From a virus, in IMG/VR virus record IMGVR_UViG_3300029106_000003, positions 1,317-65,316 of that record: a stretch of DNA of 64,000 nt. One strand, given 5' to 3'. Positions 4,357 to 57,278 of this stretch are shown here, in pieces. The notes below the pieces were generated by a model. It did no database searches and had not been told where the DNA came from. It saw only the letters and a program-made list of their open reading frames with translations. The stretch's first letter is position 1, and every line of letters starts with the position of its first letter. A program made the translations under genes and the position numbers.

Positions 4357-4704
4357 TTATTTTTTTCGGTTCGGGAAAATACCCTTTAATACGATATTGG
4401 CTAAACCTAATACATTGATAGTTGTCGTAGCCAGTAGAGATATCAATATTTCCGGTCCCAATGAAAATAATCCGATCCCGCAAAATACAAGAATGGCAAT
4501 TACTATGAATAACCATATGGGGATAATCCACATGACCCATCTGGCCAAATGTTTACGAAATTGTGTATCTTGTGAATATCGCTCCCGTATTTGTTCGGAT
4601 AAATTCTTGTCGTCTATATCGCCCAAATTTGAGTCGGGAGAAATATGGACACCATTCTCACTACGTAAATCCAAGCCGCTAAAAGAATCTTTCTGTTTAG
4701 TCAT
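4357..4704 (-). CDS. Two-TM small membrane protein; candidate PanT-type toxin
   Basis: 115 aa, hydrophobic helices WVMWIIPIWLFIVIAILVFCGIGLF and ILISLLATTTINVLGLANIVL; ATGA overlap (4701-4704) with the upstream Panacea gene. Confidence 0.6.
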   Translation of the reverse strand: MTKQKDSFSGLDLRSENGVHISPDSNLGDIDDKNLSEQIRERYSQDTQFRKHLARWVMWIIPIWLFIVIAILVFCGIGLFSLGPEILISLLATTTINVLGLANIVLKGIFPNRKK

Positions 4705-5180
4705 GCTTTGGGAGAAATTAGTGTCTTAAAATACTCTTGGATATAACTATCCGGGATTCTATCCCCCCAGCTGAATGAAGGCTGCTTAACGGTCCTATCC
4801 CACGGAGAACCGGGCTTGTGAGACCATTCCGTCAGATAGGCGGCAGTTTTAGAACCATAGCTGCCAAAGACCAGTTTCATCAGAGATTCCATTTCGGAAT
4901 CACGGGCTATTTTTTCAAGGTTTTCATCAGAAAGGGAAATTTCTGAAAAATCCTTTTTTATCAATTTATTTCGAGTGGTCGGGAAAACCGGACCATACGG
5001 CCAAGCCTGAGGGTGCTCGTTTGTCAAGCGTTCGTTCTTTACGTAAAGATATACTCCATAAGCTATATACAACAACTTTTGAAGCTTAGTCATGTTAATG
5101 AAAAACTTATTCTGGTTAGCAAACGCAATGATATAGTTTGCAACCGTAACGCTATCGTATTTATAGGTATCGCTTATCAT
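4701..5180 (-). CDS. panA: Panacea (DUF4065, SocA-like) domain antitoxin
   Basis: VANYIIAFA...MTKLQKLLYIAYG...AWPYGPVFP matches the Panacea signature; start taken at MISDTYKYD (5180), alternative ATG at 5213. Confidence 0.75.
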   Translation of the reverse strand: MISDTYKYDSVTVANYIIAFANQNKFFINMTKLQKLLYIAYGVYLYVKNERLTNEHPQAWPYGPVFPTTRNKLIKKDFSEISLSDENLEKIARDSEMESLMKLVFGSYGSKTAAYLTEWSHKPGSPWDRTVKQPSFSWGDRIPDSYIQEYFKTLISPKA

Positions 5181-5313
5181 CTTGTTGCAAAGTAACAAAA
5201 AATATCGTAACATGCAACCAATTCTTATACTTTTTTACGATAAATCAAACGGTGATTCCAAGAAGTCAAAGAACGCTTTCCCGTCGCCGGGTTATAAAAA
5301 TTCATTTTTTTCG

Positions 5314-33279: not shown

Positions 33280-33426
33280 AAATTCAATCATTCTTCAAGC
33301 TACTTACAAGAACACTTATGCAATTCTTCGGCTTCTTTCAGTCGTGTCAGATAGCAATTTCTATCACCCCGTAAACTGCACAAGCTTTAATGTTCTTGCT
33401 TTTGCTTATCGCTACTATAAGGGTTG

Positions 33427-33496
33427 AGCGGAAACAGGGAATCGAACCCCACTCTTTGGTTGGAATGCCAACGCTCTGCCGATGAGCTATTTCCGC
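33427..33496 (-). tRNA. tRNA-like gene with glycine identity set and an apparent 8-nt anticodon loop (CAUUCCAA)
   Basis: Acceptor GCGGAAA/TTTCCGC, D arm GCTC-ATCGGCA-GAGC, T arm TGGGG-TTCGATT-CCCTG, discriminator T. The anticodon arm pairs only as TTGG/CCAA around CATTCCAA. Confidence 0.6.
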
Positions 33497-38695: not shown

Positions 38696-39457
38696 ATGAA
38701 CGAGGAAATAACAAAGCTATTACTTCAATGCGACACGTTGAAAGCCCGTTTGTTGGGGCTGCGCCCATTACCACCGGATGCCCTGCAAAAGATAGAGAAT
38801 GCGTTTGCCATTGAATACACCTATGAAAGCAACCGGATCGAGGGAAATACGCTCACACTGCAAGAAACGGAGTTAGTAGTGAACGAGGGGGTTACTATCG
38901 CCGGAAAGTCAATGCGGGAACACCTTGAAGCGATTAACCACGTTGAAGCGATAGACTACATAAAGGACTTTGCAAAGGGAGGTATGGAAATATCGGAGCG
39001 CACAATCAAGGAAATACACGCTATTGTGCTACATGGCATAGACAGAGAGAATGCCGGACGTTATCGGGGCGTGCCTGTTATGATTTCGGGAAGTACACAT
39101 GTCCCTCCACAGCCGTATTTGATACAACCACAAATGGAGGCTTTTATGACAAGGTTTTCCGGAATGGAGGAGCAGGGCATTCACCCGGTGCTCATTGCGG
39201 CTTATCTTCATGATGAGTTGGTACGAATACACCCGTTTATAGACGGGAACGGGCGCACATCTCGGCTTCTGATGAATCTATACTTACTCCGCAACGGTTA
39301 TACGCTGGTAAATCTCAAAGGCAGCAACGAGGACAAAATAAGCTATTACAAGGCACTGGAAGCCTCTCATACGGAGAACAATCCGGCAGAGTTCCAAAAG
39401 GTCGTTATACGGGCTGAAATAGAATCTTTAAGCCGGTATCTCTCAATTGTAGGATAG
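38696..39457 (+). CDS. Fic-domain protein (class II, with N-terminal inhibitory motif)
   Basis: HPFIDGNGRTSR active-site motif; SNRIEG matches the (S/T)xxxE(G/N) auto-inhibition motif. Confidence 0.85.
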   Translation: MNEEITKLLLQCDTLKARLLGLRPLPPDALQKIENAFAIEYTYESNRIEGNTLTLQETELVVNEGVTIAGKSMREHLEAINHVEAIDYIKDFAKGGMEISERTIKEIHAIVLHGIDRENAGRYRGVPVMISGSTHVPPQPYLIQPQMEAFMTRFSGMEEQGIHPVLIAAYLHDELVRIHPFIDGNGRTSRLLMNLYLLRNGYTLVNLKGSNEDKISYYKALEASHTENNPAEFQKVVIRAEIESLSRYLSIVG

Positions 39458-42253: not shown

Positions 42254-43168
42254 TCATAATAGAGCTAATGCTTGTGTTACAATCGGTGTTAGTTGATTTG
42301 CTGCTATTCCCGTAGCAATACCTTGTATAGCGTTCAATGCCAATTTTAAGGTTTTCTTACCCCAAGATGGTTTATTACACTCTTCTTTTATCGTATCAAT
42401 TGCCATTTTTAGGTCTGAATTATCTATATCACTTGCTTTTTCTACAAGCTGAGAGATTACACTTTGTAGTTTTTCTTTTTGATCTTGGTCTGATATATAT
42501 AATGTAAGATCACTGTCTGAAATATTTCCTGTATTGACATTACCATCTCCTGTATTAGCTACTACTGAATTAATATAATAATTATTCATAATATTACTTA
42601 TCACTTTTTGTTCTTCAATTTTCGAAAAATCAATACCTGCATCAATTTTTTCGTCTAAATCTAGAAAAAATGATAACAGCTTTGACTTAAATTTATCAAC
42701 AATACACACCAATGAAGACACTGAGAACTCCTGCCATACTTTTTCTACATTCCCAGAAACATATTTGTTTACTTCGGTATATGCCATTGATGGAGAATTA
42801 ATAGATACATTGCCAGTTTTTTGGCTACTGCCTATATTTTCTATTTCGTTTAGTGAATGAACAATGCACACATGACTCATGCAATCATTTATGATAGCAT
42901 TATCAAAAATACCTTGAGGAATTATGATGTTTTGATACATTCCCACAAATGGTTGTGAAACATTGGCCTTTACAATAGCATTGAGAATTCTATAATCTGG
43001 AAGGTTTTCTGCATCTGGATATCCATTTTGTTCGTTTCTTATCCACATTTCAAAGTCATTATTACCCAATTTGGATGCGACTATCTGAGCTTTCAATAAT
43101 ATACCTTTAATCGGCTTATCATCGCCTAAGTCTTGAATGATTTTGTTTATTATCTCTTTCATAAGCAT
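42254..43168 (-). CDS. AbiTii-like abortive-infection domain protein
   Basis: N-terminus ...IKGILLKAQIVASKLGNNDFEMWIRNEQNGYPD...LPDYR matches the AbiTii signature; 1-nt overlap with the upstream gene. Confidence 0.6.
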   Translation of the reverse strand: MLMKEIINKIIQDLGDDKPIKGILLKAQIVASKLGNNDFEMWIRNEQNGYPDAENLPDYRILNAIVKANVSQPFVGMYQNIIIPQGIFDNAIINDCMSHVCIVHSLNEIENIGSSQKTGNVSINSPSMAYTEVNKYVSGNVEKVWQEFSVSSLVCIVDKFKSKLLSFFLDLDEKIDAGIDFSKIEEQKVISNIMNNYYINSVVANTGDGNVNTGNISDSDLTLYISDQDQKEKLQSVISQLVEKASDIDNSDLKMAIDTIKEECNKPSWGKKTLKLALNAIQGIATGIAANQLTPIVTQALALL

Positions 43169-44232
43169 TATTTCATTCGAAAAATATTCATAGGAATAAC
43201 CTTCGGTTTACAGACAAACCAATTAATAAAATCAGCCTTATTAATGCGCATCACACTCATTAAATCCTCATCGGTATATCCTAATTCGTTTCGATACAAA
43301 TTTAGTGTTTCTTCCCACATCGTAGGATGTTCTACAGGAAGAGGTATTGGTTCAATTCTACTATATCCTTTTTTGGAAAAGTATATTTGCAAATTACGAT
43401 ACTGCTGATATGTAATAGCGTCCAAGTCCCTAGCCCTTCTAACTAAAGCATGCATAGATACTCGCCATTTTCTTTTGAGTATACCTAATATTTGTACATT
43501 CAAATTTTGCAACATTGGAAAAATTTCCTCCTCTGGCATTAAAAATTCTGAAGCAAATTCATCCGCTTGACGTTCTGCATCATCAGAAGAACAAGGCGGA
43601 TTTTCTAAATGCATCACCAAATGTCCTAACTCATGAGCCATTGAGAAGCGAATTCTGTCATTAGGCATTTGATTGTTAATAAACATTACTTTCTTATCGG
43701 AATCTGTTATTGTTGTTAATCCATCTATTTTATCGGTTCCAAAATCAAAACGAATAATAATAACACCGTTATTTTCAAGCAATGTTGATAAATTGGGAAC
43801 TGCACCATTGAAAACTTTTAGTTTATATCGTATATTACGAGCAATTTCTTTAGCTGACAAATTTTCATTTGGGATATAATTACCTAAAGTGTATTCTGGC
43901 AATTCAACAGCAGACATTAATTCATCAATGATCGCTTTAAAAATCTTTACTTTGGCAACAAAAGAATCTATTATTTTATTTGTAACAGTAAGTTTCTTTC
44001 TATAATAGAGATGCCCTAGTGGAGAAATCCCTTCACTACGCATAAAAAATGTTTCGGGAAAATCGTAGTATTTACACAATTTTTCCATTATATCTCTTGG
44101 TAGCTCTTGAAGTCCGTGCTCGGCTTTCGATAAAGACGATTGAGATATTCCTACAGCCTCAGCAACTTCTTTTTGCGTTTTTTGCCTTAACAATCGAACT
44201 GTTTCAAGTAATGAGAAATTTATATTATTCAT
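43168..44232 (-). CDS. XRE HTH fused to an ImmA/IrrE (M78) zinc metallopeptidase
   Basis: HTH KTQKEVAEAVGISQSSLSKAEHG; HEXXH as MAHELGHLVMH. Confidence 0.8.
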   Translation of the reverse strand: MNNINFSLLETVRLLRQKTQKEVAEAVGISQSSLSKAEHGLQELPRDIMEKLCKYYDFPETFFMRSEGISPLGHLYYRKKLTVTNKIIDSFVAKVKIFKAIIDELMSAVELPEYTLGNYIPNENLSAKEIARNIRYKLKVFNGAVPNLSTLLENNGVIIIRFDFGTDKIDGLTTITDSDKKVMFINNQMPNDRIRFSMAHELGHLVMHLENPPCSSDDAERQADEFASEFLMPEEEIFPMLQNLNVQILGILKRKWRVSMHALVRRARDLDAITYQQYRNLQIYFSKKGYSRIEPIPLPVEHPTMWEETLNLYRNELGYTDEDLMSVMRINKADFINWFVCKPKVIPMNIFRMK

Positions 44233-49497: not shown

Positions 49498-50898
49498 TTA
49501 TTCCGGTTCTTCGAATATATTGCTTATCCTGCTTCTGGAAGCATCTGCATCTTCTTTTTGGATTTGGGCAAGAGTTTCTTGTGGATCAGTAGAGATACCT
49601 AAGTTCTTGATGGCCTCTAATTGGCTGACAACTGCTTTTCCACCACTTGCTGTAACCCATTTTTCTATTTCTGACTTTTCATCATTTTGGATAAACGGAG
49701 TTATGATGTGCTCAACCTCAACATTATCTACTTCATTTTTCCAAGAAACATTCATCATTTTTAGAAAGGCTTTGATTACGCTACATTCACGTTCAAATGC
49801 TTCTATCCATGCACCACTTTCATCTCCAACCTTTAAATGAGCGTCAGTAAGTAAAGTCTGCCTTGCATCAAATCCGATATTGCCAAGAGACTTCATGTTT
49901 TCGAAGGAAATATCCGGCATTTGTGATTGTGACCAGAACAACTCAACAAGGGTATCGACATGATATTTTAATGCCTCGATAGATTGTGCCCATGAAACAT
50001 AGGACACGTCCCCGTTTTGTTCTACTCGGTAAACTCTACGGCTTTCTCCTTTATCTTCTCCTCCTTTTATGCCACCTGCTATTTTTAGGATAGGAGCGGA
50101 GTTATATGCTATGACATCGCTATTGCGTGAGAGGGTATATTCGATTTCTTTTCTGATATAGGAAAGACCGTGATAAATGGGAACAGGACGATAAACGTAT
50201 ACTCCAGGTATTTTCAGAATAACGACCGGTTCTGATTTTACTAATTCCCAGCCGTTTCCCTGTTGTTTCCATTTATAATGAATGTTTGCCGTGTATGTCT
50301 CGAAATAGGTAACTTCTTCATTTTTGGCCTTTTTTGTGTATTCAAAAGACATTGCGATCATATCGCCAAGCTCATCAAGTAGAGGGTATAAGCTAACACC
50401 GTCCATTGGTGAGTAGGTTTTGCATTTTAGCTTATATTTACTTTTAAAGCCGTATAGAGTGTTGGGATTCTCAACTGTGTACCAAATGGTGAACACTTCG
50501 CATGAAGCAAAGTAAGCATTGCCTCGCTTAATATTCTCACTGTCAATACGGGCATACTTATATATCGCTTCAATCGCTTTCGCAATACTTTGGCGGGTTT
50601 CATTGTCTTCTATATTGTGATATACACGTTTAACCGGGATAGCGAACATGAATTCAGTCATTCGCTTGGTGAGGAGTTTTTCAAGTCCGATGTAGATACG
50701 GGAAGCTTTTTCTGTATCTCCATTAGAGCGGATCTTATCTTTACGGGTAACTGTGTCAGATACTATATCATGTTCTGTTGGTTCGTAGTCTTTGAGAAGT
50801 TTATCCCATGAGGGGACTGTTACAGACTTTTCTTTCAAATCGTTGATTATGTTATCAACGGGCCGCGTACTGTCTAAGATAGAGGTGATTTCGTCCAT
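49498..50898 (-). CDS. Portal protein (SPP1 gp6-like)
   Basis: 466 aa; size, acidic C-terminus and sequence pattern typical of Gp6-type portals; MuF gene nearby. Confidence 0.75.
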   Translation of the reverse strand: MDEITSILDSTRPVDNIINDLKEKSVTVPSWDKLLKDYEPTEHDIVSDTVTRKDKIRSNGDTEKASRIYIGLEKLLTKRMTEFMFAIPVKRVYHNIEDNETRQSIAKAIEAIYKYARIDSENIKRGNAYFASCEVFTIWYTVENPNTLYGFKSKYKLKCKTYSPMDGVSLYPLLDELGDMIAMSFEYTKKAKNEEVTYFETYTANIHYKWKQQGNGWELVKSEPVVILKIPGVYVYRPVPIYHGLSYIRKEIEYTLSRNSDVIAYNSAPILKIAGGIKGGEDKGESRRVYRVEQNGDVSYVSWAQSIEALKYHVDTLVELFWSQSQMPDISFENMKSLGNIGFDARQTLLTDAHLKVGDESGAWIEAFERECSVIKAFLKMMNVSWKNEVDNVEVEHIITPFIQNDEKSEIEKWVTASGGKAVVSQLEAIKNLGISTDPQETLAQIQKEDADASRSRISNIFEEPE

Positions 50899-51990: not shown

Positions 51991-52182
51991 ACAATTTCCG
52001 TTTATATCCTGCTTTGTCCCATTATAAAATCTCATCATGTTTATTCTTGTATTAATTTTTTGCTTAATATTTTTCTTTTTGAGTTGTTCACCCCACTGAT
52101 AGGCTTCCTCAATGACACTCTTGCAATGTTTCTTCTCCCAATTCTCGCAGAAAGGATATGACTTGTATATACTCTCAATCAT
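51973..52182 (-). CDS. Small hypothetical protein
   Basis: ORF track. Confidence 0.45.
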   Translation of the reverse strand: MIESIYKSYPFCENWEKKHCKSVIEEAYQWGEQLKKKNIKQKINTRINMMRFYNGTKQDINGNCKVPKS

Positions 52183-52217
52183 GTTTCAAATAATTTTTTA
52201 TAACTCATATTTTACTC

Positions 52218-52652
52218 CTAATTTTCATCAAATATGCTTTCGATTTTTTTGTTCACCCTGTCACATGTATCTCCAAAGGAAATGGCAAAAGATTCGTCGC
52301 CTACACGGTCTATGATGGATCGCAGGTCACGGGCGATGTGGTTGAACGCCCGCAGTTCTTCCAGCATAGGGAGGGTAACAGTGCCGTCATATTTTTTCAG
52401 TAGCGAAAGTAAATCGACAGCGGAGGATTCTGCAATGTCCGCCAACACTGGGATTTTTCTCAGGAGGCGATTACATTTATCTTTGTCCTCTTTGCTCATG
52501 GTGTCGGTGATTGTTTTTGCCGTGACTTGCTCACGGGTTTGTAGTAGCCGGTCGTATTGCCTTCGTAAGTTGTCAAACAGAGCGAAGTCACCCCTTCTCA
52601 GAGCCTTCTCCATCTTCCGGCTGTACTCCTCTTTCAATATTTCAATGTCCAT
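52218..52652 (-). CDS. Hypothetical helical protein
   Basis: ORF track. Confidence 0.6.
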   Translation of the reverse strand: MDIEILKEEYSRKMEKALRRGDFALFDNLRRQYDRLLQTREQVTAKTITDTMSKEDKDKCNRLLRKIPVLADIAESSAVDLLSLLKKYDGTVTLPMLEELRAFNHIARDLRSIIDRVGDESFAISFGDTCDRVNKKIESIFDEN

Positions 52653-52881
52653 GATTATTCCAAAGTTTAACTAATTGTTTTTCTGTATATGGTTCTTTTA
52701 CACCCATATTTGCATTCACATACCATATTCCTATGGAATCAACAAGTATGAACTCATTTATCTTTATCTGGTATATCTCACTATCGGGGTGTGCTTCTTT
52801 TACAGCAATTAATGTATCTCCATTTGTATAGCAGCTTGTTAGTATAAGCGATACTAATAAAAGCAATAAAAATTTCTTCAT
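52642..52881 (-). CDS. Small lipoprotein
   Basis: MKKFLLLLLVSLILTSC lipobox; ATG 52881 follows the upstream stop at 52884. Confidence 0.6.
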   Translation of the reverse strand: MKKFLLLLLVSLILTSCYTNGDTLIAVKEAHPDSEIYQIKINEFILVDSIGIWYVNANMGVKEPYTEKQLVKLWNNHGH

Positions 52882-52883
52882 AG

Positions 52884-53621
52884 TTACTCCTCCCACTCGA
52901 TTTTAATGGTTGTAATATAGCCATATTCTATACTTCTATTTTTCAAGGCATCTTCCTTAGTTAAATAAGCACAACAAACTGTATCCTCGAAATCTTTATA
53001 GATATTAATCCACCCCTCTTTCTTTTCGGGGAGCATCATGAGGTCTCTTTCAGTTCCAACATTACATTTTCCATCTTTGTTGTAATAGAATATAGCTTCA
53101 CATCCTTTATCTTCCAATAATGCTATAATTGGATAATTACCTTTGTTAATAGTATCAAAGCAAATAATCCTTGCCTTTCTACCATCACGAGTACATACAG
53201 GTTTACCGGCTTTGGCTGCTTCGAAGTCAAAGGGTTTTAGATTCAATTTCTTTTCTTCCATATTTTCTAATTTTAATTCGGTTTCTACTAAAAATGAGTC
53301 TTTATCACAGGAGTCAAAATTACATGCTTGCTCTTTAAACAAACAGTGCACACATGAGTATCCATCAATAGACCTCAATCTTTGAAGTACTTTACCCTCA
53401 TAAACAAAAGGCTCTCCGACCTTTTCAAGTTTCTTGAAGATTACAGATTTACCATCTTTTCTATTGCTTGATAAACATTCTCCTCTTATCTTAAATGCAT
53501 CAATACAATGAATATTATTCTGGACAGTTAAATTACAATTCTCACATCCAAAAGATTTTGTATGAATACACTGATACCATTCTCCGTTGTACTCAAATAT
53601 TTCTCCTACTTTTCTTTCCAT
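52884..53621 (-). CDS. Cys-rich hypothetical protein
   Basis: 245 aa with several CxxC-like pairs (CENCN, CVHC). Confidence 0.6.
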   Translation of the reverse strand: MERKVGEIFEYNGEWYQCIHTKSFGCENCNLTVQNNIHCIDAFKIRGECLSSNRKDGKSVIFKKLEKVGEPFVYEGKVLQRLRSIDGYSCVHCLFKEQACNFDSCDKDSFLVETELKLENMEEKKLNLKPFDFEAAKAGKPVCTRDGRKARIICFDTINKGNYPIIALLEDKGCEAIFYYNKDGKCNVGTERDLMMLPEKKEGWINIYKDFEDTVCCAYLTKEDALKNRSIEYGYITTIKIEWEE

Positions 53622-53944
53622 ATCTTACTGTATTTTAATCGTTCAAATTCTATTATCTCCTTATCCCATAGTTGGGCCACGAAATGTTCTAACTGGCAGC
53701 CCTTGGATTTTTCCCAACCGGGGCAAAGGCATATCGCATCGCATTCCATTAGTGCCTTTATATCGTTTCCCAGAAGTTCATGATAGGGTTTGTCCAAATC
53801 GGGGTTTACATCGAAGTCTATCGGTGTGACGACACGGTAACCTTCCCCTTCGAGGACTCCCGAAACGTATAGTATTTCACTTTCCACTTCATCGAAGTCC
53901 CTGCCGGTGATGGGTAGGGAGATGTAGATTTTCTTTTTATTCAT
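53606..53944 (-). CDS. DUF4406 (nucleoside 2-deoxyribosyltransferase-like) protein
   Basis: KIYISLPITG ... DAICLCPGWEKSKGCQLEHFVA pattern; ATG 53944. Confidence 0.65.
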   Translation of the reverse strand: MNKKKIYISLPITGRDFDEVESEILYVSGVLEGEGYRVVTPIDFDVNPDLDKPYHELLGNDIKALMECDAICLCPGWEKSKGCQLEHFVAQLWDKEIIEFERLKYSKIWKEK

Positions 53945-53966
53945 TTTCAATGATTGCTTTATAATA

Positions 53967-54293
53967 TTATCTGTTATCTCCATTTCCGCCAATCACACCC
54001 CTTTGTTTCCGGGAAGCTAATTTGGTATAGTTCATTTCTCCGATTTTTTCAAGCGTATATCCTAAGTCATGTGAGAGGGTAGCGATATACCAAAGCACAT
54101 CGCCGAGTTCCTTTGCCAATTCGCATTTTATGCTTTCTGAGAAATCTCCGTTGTGGTCTCGTAGTACCTTTTTTACTTTATCCGATACTTCGCCGGCTTC
54201 TCCAGTCAGTCCGAGTGTCGGGTAAATTATGTTATATTCTCTCCGGTATTGAGCTGTTTCAAGTGCCTTTTTCTGATATTCATTCAGTGTCAT
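53967..54293 (-). CDS. MazG-like nucleotide pyrophosphohydrolase
   Basis: LTGEAGEVSDKVKK and ELGDVLWYIATL motifs. Confidence 0.8.
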   Translation of the reverse strand: MTLNEYQKKALETAQYRREYNIIYPTLGLTGEAGEVSDKVKKVLRDHNGDFSESIKCELAKELGDVLWYIATLSHDLGYTLEKIGEMNYTKLASRKQRGVIGGNGDNR

Positions 54294-54425
54294 TTTTATT
54301 CTCCTTTTTAGTTATAATATTGATTATCTCATTATGTTTGGTATTAAATCTTTGATGTATGCCCTGCGAACTATATTTACATCACGTAAAAAGAGGAAAA
54401 GACCTTGTTCGTCCGTAATCATATT

Positions 54426-54962
54426 TCATTTTAAATCGAATATCTTGCTTGAATCCCTAATAGAATCAATAGACATCTTGGCACTCATTTGCCCCATAAA
54501 TTCAGCGAAATCCATCGCCCGATCCCAACTAGACCATCTATGAGTAATCTCTACTAGTTCAAAAGCATTTAGTAATACCAATTTTTCGTTTTTCTCTCTC
54601 AGGTCATTTACAGCATTTCTTACTCTGTGATAAAGCTTGCAATTATATCTTTTTGCGTTATACGGTTCCGCACCTTCTCTTGGTTCAATACTACGATATT
54701 TAACCGAAAACGAAGGAAGTTTATCTTCGCACATTGCATTATATACATCACTCTCTACCGGGCCATATGGCATAGCATAGAAATTATCGAATATATCCAA
54801 AAGGTCATCGCCTCCATCTTTCTTAGGAGCAGCAGCCAAAAACAGCAGCTTCATGGCTGTAAGTTTAGGAAACGGTTTGCCCTTAATCGTTTCATGATTA
54901 TCCCGCCACTCCTCAAAAAGATGGAGCATATAATCAAATGCCTCTATTTTATCTACTTCCAT
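54426..54962 (-). CDS. Second Panacea (DUF4065)-like domain protein
   Basis: KLTAMKLLFLAAAP...FYAMPYGPVESDVY. Confidence 0.6.
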   Translation of the reverse strand: MEVDKIEAFDYMLHLFEEWRDNHETIKGKPFPKLTAMKLLFLAAAPKKDGGDDLLDIFDNFYAMPYGPVESDVYNAMCEDKLPSFSVKYRSIEPREGAEPYNAKRYNCKLYHRVRNAVNDLREKNEKLVLLNAFELVEITHRWSSWDRAMDFAEFMGQMSAKMSIDSIRDSSKIFDLK

Positions 54963-54966
54963 AATT

Positions 54967-55608
54967 TCACTTTACCAGTTCGAAATCATACACAAATACA
55001 TAGGGGTTGTTCTCCCATGTGCCTTTACCGCTTATCTTGTCGATTAAGTATGAATAAGCCCCTTGTGGCGTGCAAAAAGGATCTTTTTTTAATGTCGGAA
55101 TATAATATGCGTCCATAAAATGGGTATCTTCACTGCCGACTTTGCCTTTTATTATTCCCTCTTTCAAACAATCTTCATCTGAAATATCTTGTAACCGTTC
55201 AGCACGTACATTAGTTATGCGGATTTGGTGTGGCATTAGCTCTGGCTTCACATACATTTTATTTGTCCAGCCTGCACCGTTTGGGAATAAATTAGGATTG
55301 CACTCATCATTGTAAAAGGAATTGTAGCTTTGAGCTATGGCTATGATTTCACCTACTTTATACGGGAGTCGGAATATGCTACCACCTTCCAGCTTTGCTC
55401 CATAACCACAGAACTCACAATAAACACTACCATCTTCGTTGACAACCAAACTCATGGGTTTGTCCTTCCAATATGCTGATTTATACCAACAATGTACCGT
55501 AGAACAGTCCTCCGGTTGTGGATTCATTATCCGCCTTGTCTGAGTTTTTATACCTTCAAGTACGGCTTGTGTGAGTCCGTTTTTATCATTGAACATTATT
55601 TTCTTCAT
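54967..55608 (-). CDS. ASCH-like domain protein
   Basis: N-terminus AVLEGIKTQTRRI is typical of ASCH/PUA-like proteins. Confidence 0.55.
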   Translation of the reverse strand: MKKIMFNDKNGLTQAVLEGIKTQTRRIMNPQPEDCSTVHCWYKSAYWKDKPMSLVVNEDGSVYCEFCGYGAKLEGGSIFRLPYKVGEIIAIAQSYNSFYNDECNPNLFPNGAGWTNKMYVKPELMPHQIRITNVRAERLQDISDEDCLKEGIIKGKVGSEDTHFMDAYYIPTLKKDPFCTPQGAYSYLIDKISGKGTWENNPYVFVYDFELVK

Positions 55609-55625
55609 ATTTCAATCGCCATTAA

Positions 55626-55763
55626 TTAAATCCAAATTATAAATACATAATCGCTATTAACTGTACGATTTATATCATTAGTCTCATAAAGCGAAGCTAC
55701 TTTAATAAGTTTTGACTTATCTTCCACTTTTTCAAGTTCGTCAATCAATTCTTGTACTGTCAT
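55626..55763 (-). CDS. Small hypothetical protein (45 aa)
   Basis: Below the track cutoff; MTVQELIDELEKVEDKSKLIKVASL... Confidence 0.35.
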   Translation of the reverse strand: MTVQELIDELEKVEDKSKLIKVASLYETNDINRTVNSDYVFIIWI

Positions 55764-55791
55764 ATTCTTTTCTTTTTAAGTCTTTCAACCT

Positions 55792-56325
55792 CTATTCCTC
55801 CTTTATAATTTCTTTCATGAAACAAATCCAGTGTGTATTAGATCGTTTGCCGGATATATGCCCGAATATTGGTTTTTCAGGTGTGAGTTTGAGAACTTCC
55901 GACACTTTGATGTCGGTCTCGTTCCATTTGAAAATCAAAAATCCTCCGGGTTTCAGGACTCTAAAACATTCTTTAAATCCCTTTGCCAGCATATCACGCC
56001 AATCTGAATACAGAGCTCCATATTTAATTTGTTGGTAGCCTGTTGGCGATGCTTTTTCGTTCAAACTTCCGTACATATCTGCCATCTTTGACTTTCCAGC
56101 ATTCCTTAATAAGTGAGGCGGATCGAAAACTACCATCGAAAAAGATTTATCCTCATAGGGCATATTTGTAAAGTCGGCTTGTATGTCGGGATTTACTTCA
56201 AATAATCTACCATCGCATAAATGAGTAGATACCTTTCGAATGTCTTGAAAAAGAACTCTTTCGTCATGTTTGTCGAAGTAGAACATCTTTCCCCCACAAC
56301 AGGCATCTAATATCGTTTTTCTCAT
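55792..56325 (-). CDS. Small amino-methyltransferase (N6-adenine or N4-cytosine DNA MTase class)
   Basis: Motif I ILDACCGG and motif IV VVFDPPHL. Confidence 0.75.
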   Translation of the reverse strand: MRKTILDACCGGKMFYFDKHDERVLFQDIRKVSTHLCDGRLFEVNPDIQADFTNMPYEDKSFSMVVFDPPHLLRNAGKSKMADMYGSLNEKASPTGYQQIKYGALYSDWRDMLAKGFKECFRVLKPGGFLIFKWNETDIKVSEVLKLTPEKPIFGHISGKRSNTHWICFMKEIIKEE

Positions 56326-56654
56326 TGCTCTCCTCCTTTCTTCAATTCAGCAATGAGGGCATCGGCACATTCTATTGCATATTGCGCTTGTGCCATTGTA
56401 TTTTTGAATCCTGTTGTGTCATTGTTATGTTGTTCAGCAGAAGTCATCATATCTTTGGCTATCTCATACCTGCGTTGCTCCCAATCAATGTTCTTGTGTT
56501 TTTCTTCTTTAATAAATTCAAGCTCTGATTGCACGTATGTACACCAACTACGCTTGTTATCAACATATTGACGCTCCACTCCTCTTTTGGTGATAATATT
56601 TTCTATCCGTGATACCTCTATGACTTCGCCAGTCGATTTAATTTTTGCTTTCAT
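56322..56654 (-). CDS. Hypothetical protein
   Basis: ORF track; ATGA overlap with the next gene. Confidence 0.55.
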   Translation of the reverse strand: MKAKIKSTGEVIEVSRIENIITKRGVERQYVDNKRSWCTYVQSELEFIKEEKHKNIDWEQRRYEIAKDMMTSAEQHNNDTTGFKNTMAQAQYAIECADALIAELKKGGEQ

Positions 56655-56685
56655 TGTTCTCCTCCTTTCATAAGTCCGGTTTCTC

Positions 56686-56907
56686 TCATATCCGTATACT
56701 TTTTACTCTTATTTCCATTAACTCTAATAATGCCTTTCTCAAATCTCTATCCATGCCTACGCCGGAAACATTTTCGAAATAACATTGCCATACTTTCTTA
56801 TGGCTGTCGAAAATGATTAACAGGTCGTGTAACCCGATTGTCGGCTTATGAGACAGTATCTCCGATACGATGTCTTCTAGGGGTTCTGTTGGTGATTCTT
56901 TTTTCAT
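56686..56907 (-). CDS. Hypothetical protein
   Basis: ORF track. Confidence 0.5.
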   Translation of the reverse strand: MKKESPTEPLEDIVSEILSHKPTIGLHDLLIIFDSHKKVWQCYFENVSGVGMDRDLRKALLELMEIRVKSIRI

Positions 56908-56975
56908 AACTTATTGTTGAAATAGTCTTACCCGTAGCCTAATTACTGTATGATCTACATCTAACAACCCTATCC

Positions 56976-57278
56976 TCATAAGTCACTGAGATTAAAAGTT
57001 TTTATTTCCTCCTCGGTGAACCAATATTTGACTTTGAGAGGCCTTATGCTGTAAAGCATTTCGTCGTAGCTATTCCTATTGTATATCTCGTCTAATCGGC
57101 TATATAGTTGCTTAGCTCTGTCTATGTCTTCATAGATAACTCGCTGAACTTCTTCATGAGAACAGTTGATAATATGCATCGAGAAAACATATACTTGGTT
57201 ATTCCTTATGTCAAGATAAATAAATATTACAAGCGTCATAAAAAGAATGGCTAATCCCGCTATCAATGTTATTTCCAT
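56976..57278 (-). CDS. N-terminally membrane-anchored small protein
   Basis: TM ITLIAGLAILFMTLVIFIYL. Confidence 0.55.
   Translation of the reverse strand: MEITLIAGLAILFMTLVIFIYLDIRNNQVYVFSMHIINCSHEEVQRVIYEDIDRAKQLYSRLDEIYNRNSYDEMLYSIRPLKVKYWFTEEEIKTFNLSDL

Follow-up and report, generated by a model that had tools for sequence, protein, structure and literature searches.

A solo Panacea gene in a Bacteroidales-type temperate phage resembles a counter-measure of the phage more than one half of a new toxin-antitoxin pair

Introduction

Antitoxins built on the Panacea domain (PanA) form complexes with their toxins (PanT), and a few substitutions are enough to retarget them (Kurata et al., 2022; PMC8832971). 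Standalone Panacea antitoxins neutralize membrane toxins by direct contact, as exemplified by B. choladocola PanA:PanT D11 (Ernits et al., 2023; PMC10440598). Here we analyze a gene encoding a 178-residue Panacea protein in a 64,000-nucleotide (nt) stretch of viral DNA (IMG/VR record IMGVR_UViG_3300029106_000003, positions 1,317 to 65,316), hereafter the window, in whose coordinates all positions are given unless stated otherwise. A sequence-only reading of this DNA had proposed the gene as half of a new PanA-toxin pair whose other half would be either a 32-codon open reading frame (ORF) directly downstream or the MazG and DUF4406 genes that follow it, and had kept a role outside toxin-antitoxin (TA) systems as its fallback.

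Antitoxin-like activities are also carried by phages; T4 Dmd acts against RnlA/LsoA. The NADAR proteins of T4-like phages are orphan antitoxins directed against DarTG1 (PMC11825919), and the DarG2-like antitoxin of chimalliviruses is a further phage orphan antitoxin (PMC13309987). We find that the Panacea gene of the window stands beside cassettes that are unrelated to it and swappable, and for this reason it looks more like a phage counter-measure than like part of a new TA pair.

Results

The Panacea domain and its partnered relatives

The 178-residue protein matches the Pfam profile SocA_Panacea (PF13274) at 29.1 bits, above the gathering cut-off of 25.7, over profile positions 2–112 of 113, and most of its homologues bear a precomputed PF13274 match. 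The GPV motif, which is reported to be critical for neutralization (Kurata et al., 2022; PMC8832971), is present as G67, P68, and V69 within AMPYGPVE; across 25 family members G67 and P68 never vary, and at least 90% of the members have V69. The assignment to Panacea in the sequence-only reading is thereby upheld. The protein falls below the threshold of the SocA type VI antitoxin equivalog (NCBIfam NF047745; 17.9 bits vs a cut-off of 190), and no SocB-like partner is present at the locus. A PDB sequence search with the Panacea-family profile gave no match.

About 120 related loci were compared, and neighboring genes were mapped at 28 loci of species-representative genomes and at 80 IMG/VR loci. 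Homologues that are 30–67% identical to the window protein are followed by a gene for a protein of 560–720 residues, the two genes overlapping by up to 11 nt or lying up to 24 nt apart. This large partner is present in 25 of the 26 genome loci having downstream sequence, two of the genes being cut by an insertion, and in 16 viral-contig loci. The PanA of Barnesiella sp. An55, which is 70% identical, has a partner of 632 residues. One of these pairs, from Marinifilum fragile (WP_054719394.1 / WP_054719396.1), is included in Dataset S1 of Kurata et al. (2022; PMC8832971), where it is listed as a PanA without an N-terminal domain, toxin cluster T15, overlap −11 nt, and “notest”; the T15 cluster comprises 13 Bacteroidetes pairs. 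Because the pair is so listed, the large partner is a predicted PanT. Chromosomal modules have a type III restriction res subunit, Eco47II endonuclease, HicAB, nucleotidyltransferase, putAbiC, and DUF4238 among their neighbors (several modules).

The 92 homologues of the large partner are all named “hypothetical” and contain no Pfam domain. Each of the family's three strongly hydrophobic C-terminal segments is predicted to be a transmembrane helix, and an AlphaFold2 model is all-alpha with long C-terminal helices (predicted local distance difference test score of 81). Foldseek comparison of the model with the PDB returned only non-specific helical-repeat matches, a PDB sequence search with the family profile gave no match, and PADLOC gave only weak PycTM-like matches to the T15 proteins (E 0.002–0.009). 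At one locus (L020) the T15 gene is interrupted by a 387-residue gene on the opposite strand, and at two others (L034 and L044) by a 407-residue gene after codon 92. These interruptions suggest that the putative toxin is occasionally inactivated with PanA left intact.

An orphan clade under purifying selection in phages

Homologues at least 73% identical to the window protein are all phage-borne and all lack the T15 gene; in the window itself no T15 homologue was found anywhere (tblastn, E 1e-3). A neighbor-joining tree places this orphan clade inside the T15-partnered sequences. The clade retains every invariant residue of the family, GPV included, and more than 70 loci still have the ORF at full length. 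The ratio of nonsynonymous to synonymous substitution rates (dN/dS) is ∼0.29 (405 pairs with dS >0.05), which indicates that the gene has been maintained by purifying selection in the absence of its ancestral partner.

The clade extends beyond temperate phages. An orphan that is 76% identical to the window protein is encoded on a crAss-like contig of 101 kb (DNA polymerase A, Thy1, VWA, thioredoxin), where it is flanked by a YO09-like gene and by a 204-residue protein related to the 213-residue protein encoded upstream of Panacea in the window. The published crAss-like phage cr128_1 shows 94–96% DNA identity with window positions 54738–56655, but only the first 79 codons of its Panacea gene are left (97-residue ORF); truncated or internally deleted copies are also found at L146 and L157. 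The block of ∼1.9 kb common to the window and cr128_1, which is also present at L126, contains a methyltransferase gene, a 110-residue gene, the 213-residue gene, and the start of Panacea. It indicates recent gene exchange between crAss-like (Crassvirales) and temperate Bacteroidales phages.

Exchangeable cassettes beside the Panacea gene

The DNA between the Panacea stop codon and the start of the YO09-like gene downstream was surveyed in the 77 orphan-clade loci having enough sequence. The arrangement in the window (mini-ORF, MazG, and DUF4406) is shared by 19 of the 77 loci. An ORF-less 479-nt element together with DUF4406 is found in 29 loci, and with internal deletions in another 8; 17 loci have no insert (9–14 nt), 3 have DUF4406 alone, and 1 has a 143-residue gene followed by the 479-nt element, MazG, and DUF4406. 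About three quarters of the close relatives thus carry Panacea without MazG or the mini-ORF, and homology between the variants stops precisely at the Panacea stop codon and the DUF4406 start. The sequence at the junction, TGAAATATGATTATGG (stop codon, three nucleotides, ATG-ATT-ATG), provides the start codon for whichever gene comes next, which among the siblings can be the YO09-like gene (MIMERKVGE...), the 143-residue gene (MIMKGKQ...), or the mini-ORF. Since it recurs at the starts of different genes and marks the exchange breakpoints, the junction looks like a boundary for modular recombination and translational coupling.

The neighboring genes are also found without Panacea. Two loci (L179 and L181) contain MazG and DUF4406 genes 100% identical to those of the window with no Panacea gene within 2.5 kb, and none lies within 2.5 kb of 33 more distant MazG homologues. 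Three siblings (L151, L154, and L173) have kept the 213-residue gene, the 479-nt element, DUF4406, and the YO09-like gene while Panacea is absent; L147, L166, and L169 are further Panacea-less siblings, and DUF4406 occurs without Panacea in five of these six loci (all except L166). Because the neighbors vary or occur without Panacea, none of them behaves as a toxin dependent on this antitoxin. We conclude that MazG, DUF4406, and the mini-ORF are unrelated, swappable cassettes, and that MazG and DUF4406 are independent nucleotide-metabolism cassettes.

The 479-nt element (L002 positions 4538–5016, outside the window) fills the slot of the mini-ORF and MazG in 37 sibling loci. It has no ORF longer than 44 residues, is 97–99.6% conserved across contigs, and folds far better than shuffled controls (z −8.7 and −10.4 for the two strands), with a long-range stem of 27 bp and, on the strand that does not encode the operon, a hairpin resembling a terminator. 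Rfam gave no match to the element, which is also found without a Panacea gene and with internal deletions. It could represent a structured RNA or else a mobile element.

Origin of the mini-ORF

The 32-codon ORF lies exactly where the sequence-only reading had placed it, immediately past the Panacea stop codon (Table 1). Its ancestor was located by way of MazG-centered loci. In L179/L181 an intact 100-residue gene (MKIEDIED...QRWAYIKDLIPNIMR), with the C-terminal end ...RWAYIKDLIPNIMR, occupies the exact place of the mini-ORF before MazG. From position 54364 downstream, through the stop codon, the AGGAG spacer, and MazG, L179/L181 and the window agree at 100% DNA identity; on the upstream side of 54364 they part, and the window meets the Panacea junction at a common TATGATT. 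Residues 11–29 of the mini-ORF also resemble the C-termini of 100–104-residue proteins in seven other sibling-phage loci. An exact 27-mer search for a closer full-length ancestor returned window-type contigs only. On the strength of these alignments we firmly assign the mini-ORF as a 5'-truncated remnant of a 100-residue phage gene, a recombination scar, and a recombination that removed ∼70 codons is the most economical reading of how it arose.

The mini-ORF peptide has no hydrophobic segment and no family match in Pfam or phrog, and nothing suggests a function for it. It may still be translated, as it uses the start context of real sibling genes. ORFs of 25–45 residues number in the dozens in these 8 kb, so that a 32-codon ORF is unremarkable in this AT-rich DNA.

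Layout of the locus

The features of the locus are collected in Table 1. All genes between 50 and 58 kb of the window are on the minus strand, with Panacea inside a series of over 15 phage genes that share this direction, and a promoter and terminator scan found nothing that separates the genes and no terminator-like site on the minus strand between 52500 and 56786. The 213-residue gene ends 4 nt before the Panacea start, and its product has no Pfam, NCBIfam, or PDB sequence match. Profile scores above the Pfam cut-offs bear out the earlier naming of MazG and DUF4406; phrog_355, which DUF4406 matches, is labeled “nucleoside 2-deoxyribosyltransferase”. Gene callers chose the ATG at 53944 for DUF4406 on eight identical contigs (112 residues), and this is most likely its real start. 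A 128-residue DUF4406 ORF beginning at a TTG at 53992 and overlapping MazG is probably not the actual gene.

Table 1. Features around the Panacea gene, in order of transcription (window coordinates)
Feature	Position	Strand	Remarks
SAM-dependent methyltransferase (SAM, S-adenosylmethionine)	55792-56325	minus	First of the genes listed
213-residue protein, function not assigned	54967-55608	minus	phrog_874 at 3.3e-35
Panacea protein, 178 residues, solo (orphan), no extra N-terminal domain	54426-54962	minus	PF13274
Module junction TGAAATATGATTA	54416-54428	minus	Panacea stop codon, 3 nt, ATG of next gene
32-codon mini-ORF	54324-54422	minus	Begins 3 nt past Panacea stop (TGA AAT ATG)
MazG-type nucleoside triphosphate (NTP) pyrophosphohydrolase, 108 residues	53967-54293	minus	PF03819, 35.2 bits (cut-off 22); phrog_229, 2.4e-34
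DUF4406 (nucleoside 2-deoxyribosyltransferase-like), 112 residues	53606-53944	minus	PF14359, 46.4 bits (cut-off 22); phrog_355, 9.9e-22
YO09-like protein, 245 residues	52884-53621	minus	Precomputed PF26890 Phage_HP1_YO09 on identical protein
SPP1-type portal gene	49498-50898		A few small genes beyond the YO09-like gene

MazG is preceded (54294–54312) by a strong Shine-Dalgarno-like sequence, AAAAAGGAGAATAAAAATG, with AGGAG 8 nt upstream of the gene, and the spacer that holds this site accompanies MazG in every cassette context. Shine-Dalgarno-like sites are generally little used in Bacteroidales, which makes the MazG site unusual. Rfam scans of window positions 52000–57000 and of loci L002 and L009 gave a sole, sub-threshold match to snoR64 over the mini-ORF region (24.3 bits vs a cut-off of 45), which we take as chance. 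PADLOC gave no match for the Panacea, 213-residue, MazG, or DUF4406 proteins.

KilA-N, DUF6291, portal, antirepressor, and HTH-M78 (HTH, helix-turn-helix) genes identify the window as part of a Bacteroidales-type temperate phage, and its DNA has short matches to Bacteroides phages. The Panacea gene is positioned in an accessory region that separates the replication genes from the portal gene, with DNA methyltransferases nearby. The exact 178-residue protein is indexed in 1234 blocks of a public assembly collection; the 8 of those places that were read are ENA metagenome contigs of 214–398 kb, lengths that fit a prophage. A gut Bacteroidales prophage fits as the carrier of the solo Panacea gene.

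Other features of the window

Use of the family hidden Markov model, followed by Pfam, located another Panacea gene at 4701–5213 on the minus strand (170 residues; PF13274, 52.7 bits), in agreement with the description of the gene studied here as the second in the window. It overlaps by 4 nt the gene for a 115-residue protein (4357–4704, minus strand) whose N-terminus is charged and whose C-terminal part contains two hydrophobic segments. The 4357–5213 pair has the canonical layout of a PanA with a membrane PanT, in contrast to the orphan copy, which has no such partner. BLASTP detected no similarity between the two Panacea proteins of the window.

More defense- or toxin-like cargo is encoded elsewhere in the window. 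An AbiTii-domain protein (304 residues; PF18864, 114.6 bits) is directly downstream of a protein with HTH and M78 (IrrE-like) peptidase domains (354 residues; 42254–44232 for the two), and a Fic/DOC protein of 253 residues is encoded on the plus strand at 38696–39457. At 33426–33496, beside a tRNA-Cys, ARAGORN called a tRNA without an assigned identity, its “anticodon” being two bases long (tc); the tRNA may be aberrant, or the call false.

Discussion

A captured antitoxin as the best explanation

We propose that the 178-residue protein is an orphan Panacea antitoxin, unpaired in the window, that was captured from a PanA:toxin module and neutralizes a host PanA:T15; we put the probability of this reading at roughly 0.5. 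Its descriptive part, a solo PanA among independent cassettes and next to a remnant ORF, we hold with high confidence, whereas a counter-defense function for the phage PanA is put forward tentatively, at somewhat below even odds. With the ∼600-residue membrane partner of the family absent from the window, the role outside TA systems, which had been only the fallback of the sequence-only reading, is the option favored by the evidence.

The ancestral module, found on Bacteroidota chromosomes and in some proviruses, consists of a PanA translationally coupled to an all-alpha protein of ∼560–720 residues (T15) and is set among restriction, abortive-infection (Abi), and TA genes. The phage-borne clade has kept the antitoxin only, in an accessory region where cassettes are swapped at TGAAATATGATTATGG, and the mini-ORF is the 3' leftover of the 100-residue gene, brought in with the MazG cassette. 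During infection or in a lysogen, the solo PanA would bind and neutralize the T15-type effector of a host PanA:T15, and a TA or abortive-infection defense would thereby be disarmed, much as phage orphan antitoxins act against DarTG1. The protein aligns co-linearly with PanAs that have a T15 partner, reaches 70% identity with them, and has kept the invariant residues, so that retention of the ancestral specificity is the simplest assumption. The place of the gene among DNA methyltransferases and nucleotide-metabolism cassettes is circumstantial in this respect but fits an anti-defense island. A wider version, in which gut Bacteroidales phages, temperate siphophage-like prophages and a crAss-like phage alike, use Panacea as a binding-type (type II) decoy that disarms PanA:T15 as a widespread defense of Bacteroidota, is possible, though we would sooner bet against it than for it.

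Several points count against a captured antitoxin aimed at T15. The T15 pairs were marked “notest” by Kurata et al., so that the toxicity of T15 and its part in defense are predictions. That hosts of the prophage carry a PanA:T15 module is an assumption. Two partnered sequences, L107 and L109, cluster beside the orphans in the neighbor-joining tree, which blurs the boundary of the clade, probably through recombination. Wherever the available sequence is long enough, an orphan copy has a YO09-like gene downstream of it, which leaves a swap of partner some small probability. About half of the Panacea proteins are outside TA-like loci (Kurata et al., 2022; PMC8832971), and Panacea has been proposed to be a sensor rather than a neutralizer (Ernits et al., 2023; PMC10440598).

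Alternative partners and roles

These last two observations also speak for the alternative that survives best, namely that the solo Panacea protein aids the phage without any T15, as a sensor or regulator, as a neutralizer of an unrelated host toxin, or in protecting a lysogen from superinfection. Purifying selection on the gene is compatible with such a role, and two substitutions can retarget PanA to non-homologous toxins (PMC8832971). However, the co-linearity with T15-partnered PanAs and the retention of all invariant residues at up to 70% identity are found together with no positive sign of another target, and we consider this alternative unlikely, although it is the most serious competitor of the captured antitoxin.

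A swap of partner, such that Panacea now neutralizes the YO09-like protein or the upstream 213-residue protein, is considerably less probable. Panacea is known for partner swapping (PMC8832971), in 17 loci, as in the crAss-like contig, the YO09-like gene starts 3–14 nt past the stop codon of Panacea, and the 213-residue gene is directly upstream, 4 nt away or overlapping, in 62 of the 77 relatives. Yet both genes persist in the three siblings that lack Panacea but retain DUF4406 and the 479-nt element, and inserts of 550–1565 nt part Panacea from the YO09-like gene in most loci. Where the Panacea proteins are 92–100% identical, the YO09-like proteins are 43–100% and the 213-residue proteins 52–100% identical, so that co-evolution is absent, and the C-terminal domain of the YO09-like protein is also present in phages of Proteobacteria (Achromobacter and Alcaligenes) that do not have this Panacea. 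Kurata et al. looked for a second gene that lies within 100 nt and keeps this position in different species, in a neighborhood that does not suggest an operon of more than three genes; at this locus no such conserved second gene was found, and the co-directional operon is far longer.

We give little credence to the idea that the gene is a functionless, decaying hitch-hiker. Its truncated or internally deleted copies in cr128_1, L146, and L157 and its absence from some siblings are what decay would leave, but the dN/dS value, the full-length ORF in more than 70 loci, the number of assembly blocks that hold the exact protein, and the conservation of the gene between a crAss-like phage and temperate phages oppose it.

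Still less probable is that MazG, DUF4406, or both act as a toxic or accessory partner of Panacea in a three-gene TA system like mazEF-mazG. Both genes are co-directional with Panacea and close to it, mazG is known as the third gene of mazEF, and Kurata et al. admitted third-gene architectures (PMC8832971). Against this, sibling phages carry the two genes without Panacea, identical copies in L179/L181 included, as do the 33 distant MazG loci for MazG and five sibling loci for DUF4406; conversely, ∼75% of the close relatives have Panacea but no MazG, 17 loci and the crAss-like contig have Panacea but no DUF4406, and the cassette boundaries coincide precisely with gene junctions. Least probable of all is a new PanAT pair in which Panacea neutralizes the 32-codon ORF as a small toxin: many predicted PanT toxins are small peptides (PMC8832971) and this one begins at a junction that starts real sibling genes, but it represents the truncated 3' end of a gene found whole in L179/L181 with no Panacea nearby, lacks the hydrophobic segment with which small PanT peptides span the membrane, is present in only a quarter of the orphan-clade loci, and varies by a single synonymous change, which leaves coding selection not measurable.

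Significance and comparison with known systems

The proposed new PanA-toxin pair is not borne out, and bench work on the mini-ORF, MazG, and DUF4406 can therefore be spared. The pattern that emerges instead is of a type II antitoxin domain that has lost its toxin and is kept under selection in very abundant human-gut phages, while full-module relatives of the orphan sit among chromosomal defense genes of Bacteroidota. Among the papers searched, none linked Panacea to counter-defense. If the captured antitoxin does neutralize T15, it would be the first phage-borne Panacea counter-defense, and a binding-type antitoxin would join the short list of phage orphan antitoxins. PanA:T15 would then be an anti-phage abortive-infection system, giving a defense role to a predicted toxin family, and there would be implications for host range both in Bacteroides and in crAss-like phage systems.

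The closest described systems are the predicted PanA:T15 pairs among the PanAT systems of Kurata et al. (2022; PMC8832971). The window protein is likewise a Panacea-only PanA with GPV, and it is 30–70% identical to PanAs that precede T15; it differs in having neither T15 nor any conserved two-gene partner, and in residing in a long phage operon of swappable cassettes. The standalone Panacea antitoxins that neutralize membrane toxins directly, such as that of B. choladocola PanA:PanT D11 (PMC10440598), share the single-domain Panacea, and several validated membrane-depolarizing PanTs resemble the T15 partner in their C-terminal transmembrane helices. T15, in contrast, is not a small peptide but a protein of ∼600 residues with a large all-alpha cytoplasmic part, and at this locus it is missing. 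The C-terminal domain of DarG in the Mycobacterium tuberculosis DarTG complex (PDB 7yk3) is more remote, with 13% identity, an unrelated toxin, and a macrodomain that has no counterpart here. In its evolutionary pattern the gene resembles the phage orphan antitoxins NADAR, DarG2-like, and Dmd: here too, a phage antitoxin homologue without a toxin is nested within toxin-linked bacterial TA antitoxins. NADAR and the DarG2-like antitoxin, however, are enzymes that reverse a modification, whereas an orphan Panacea antitoxin would act by binding, in the manner of type II antitoxins.

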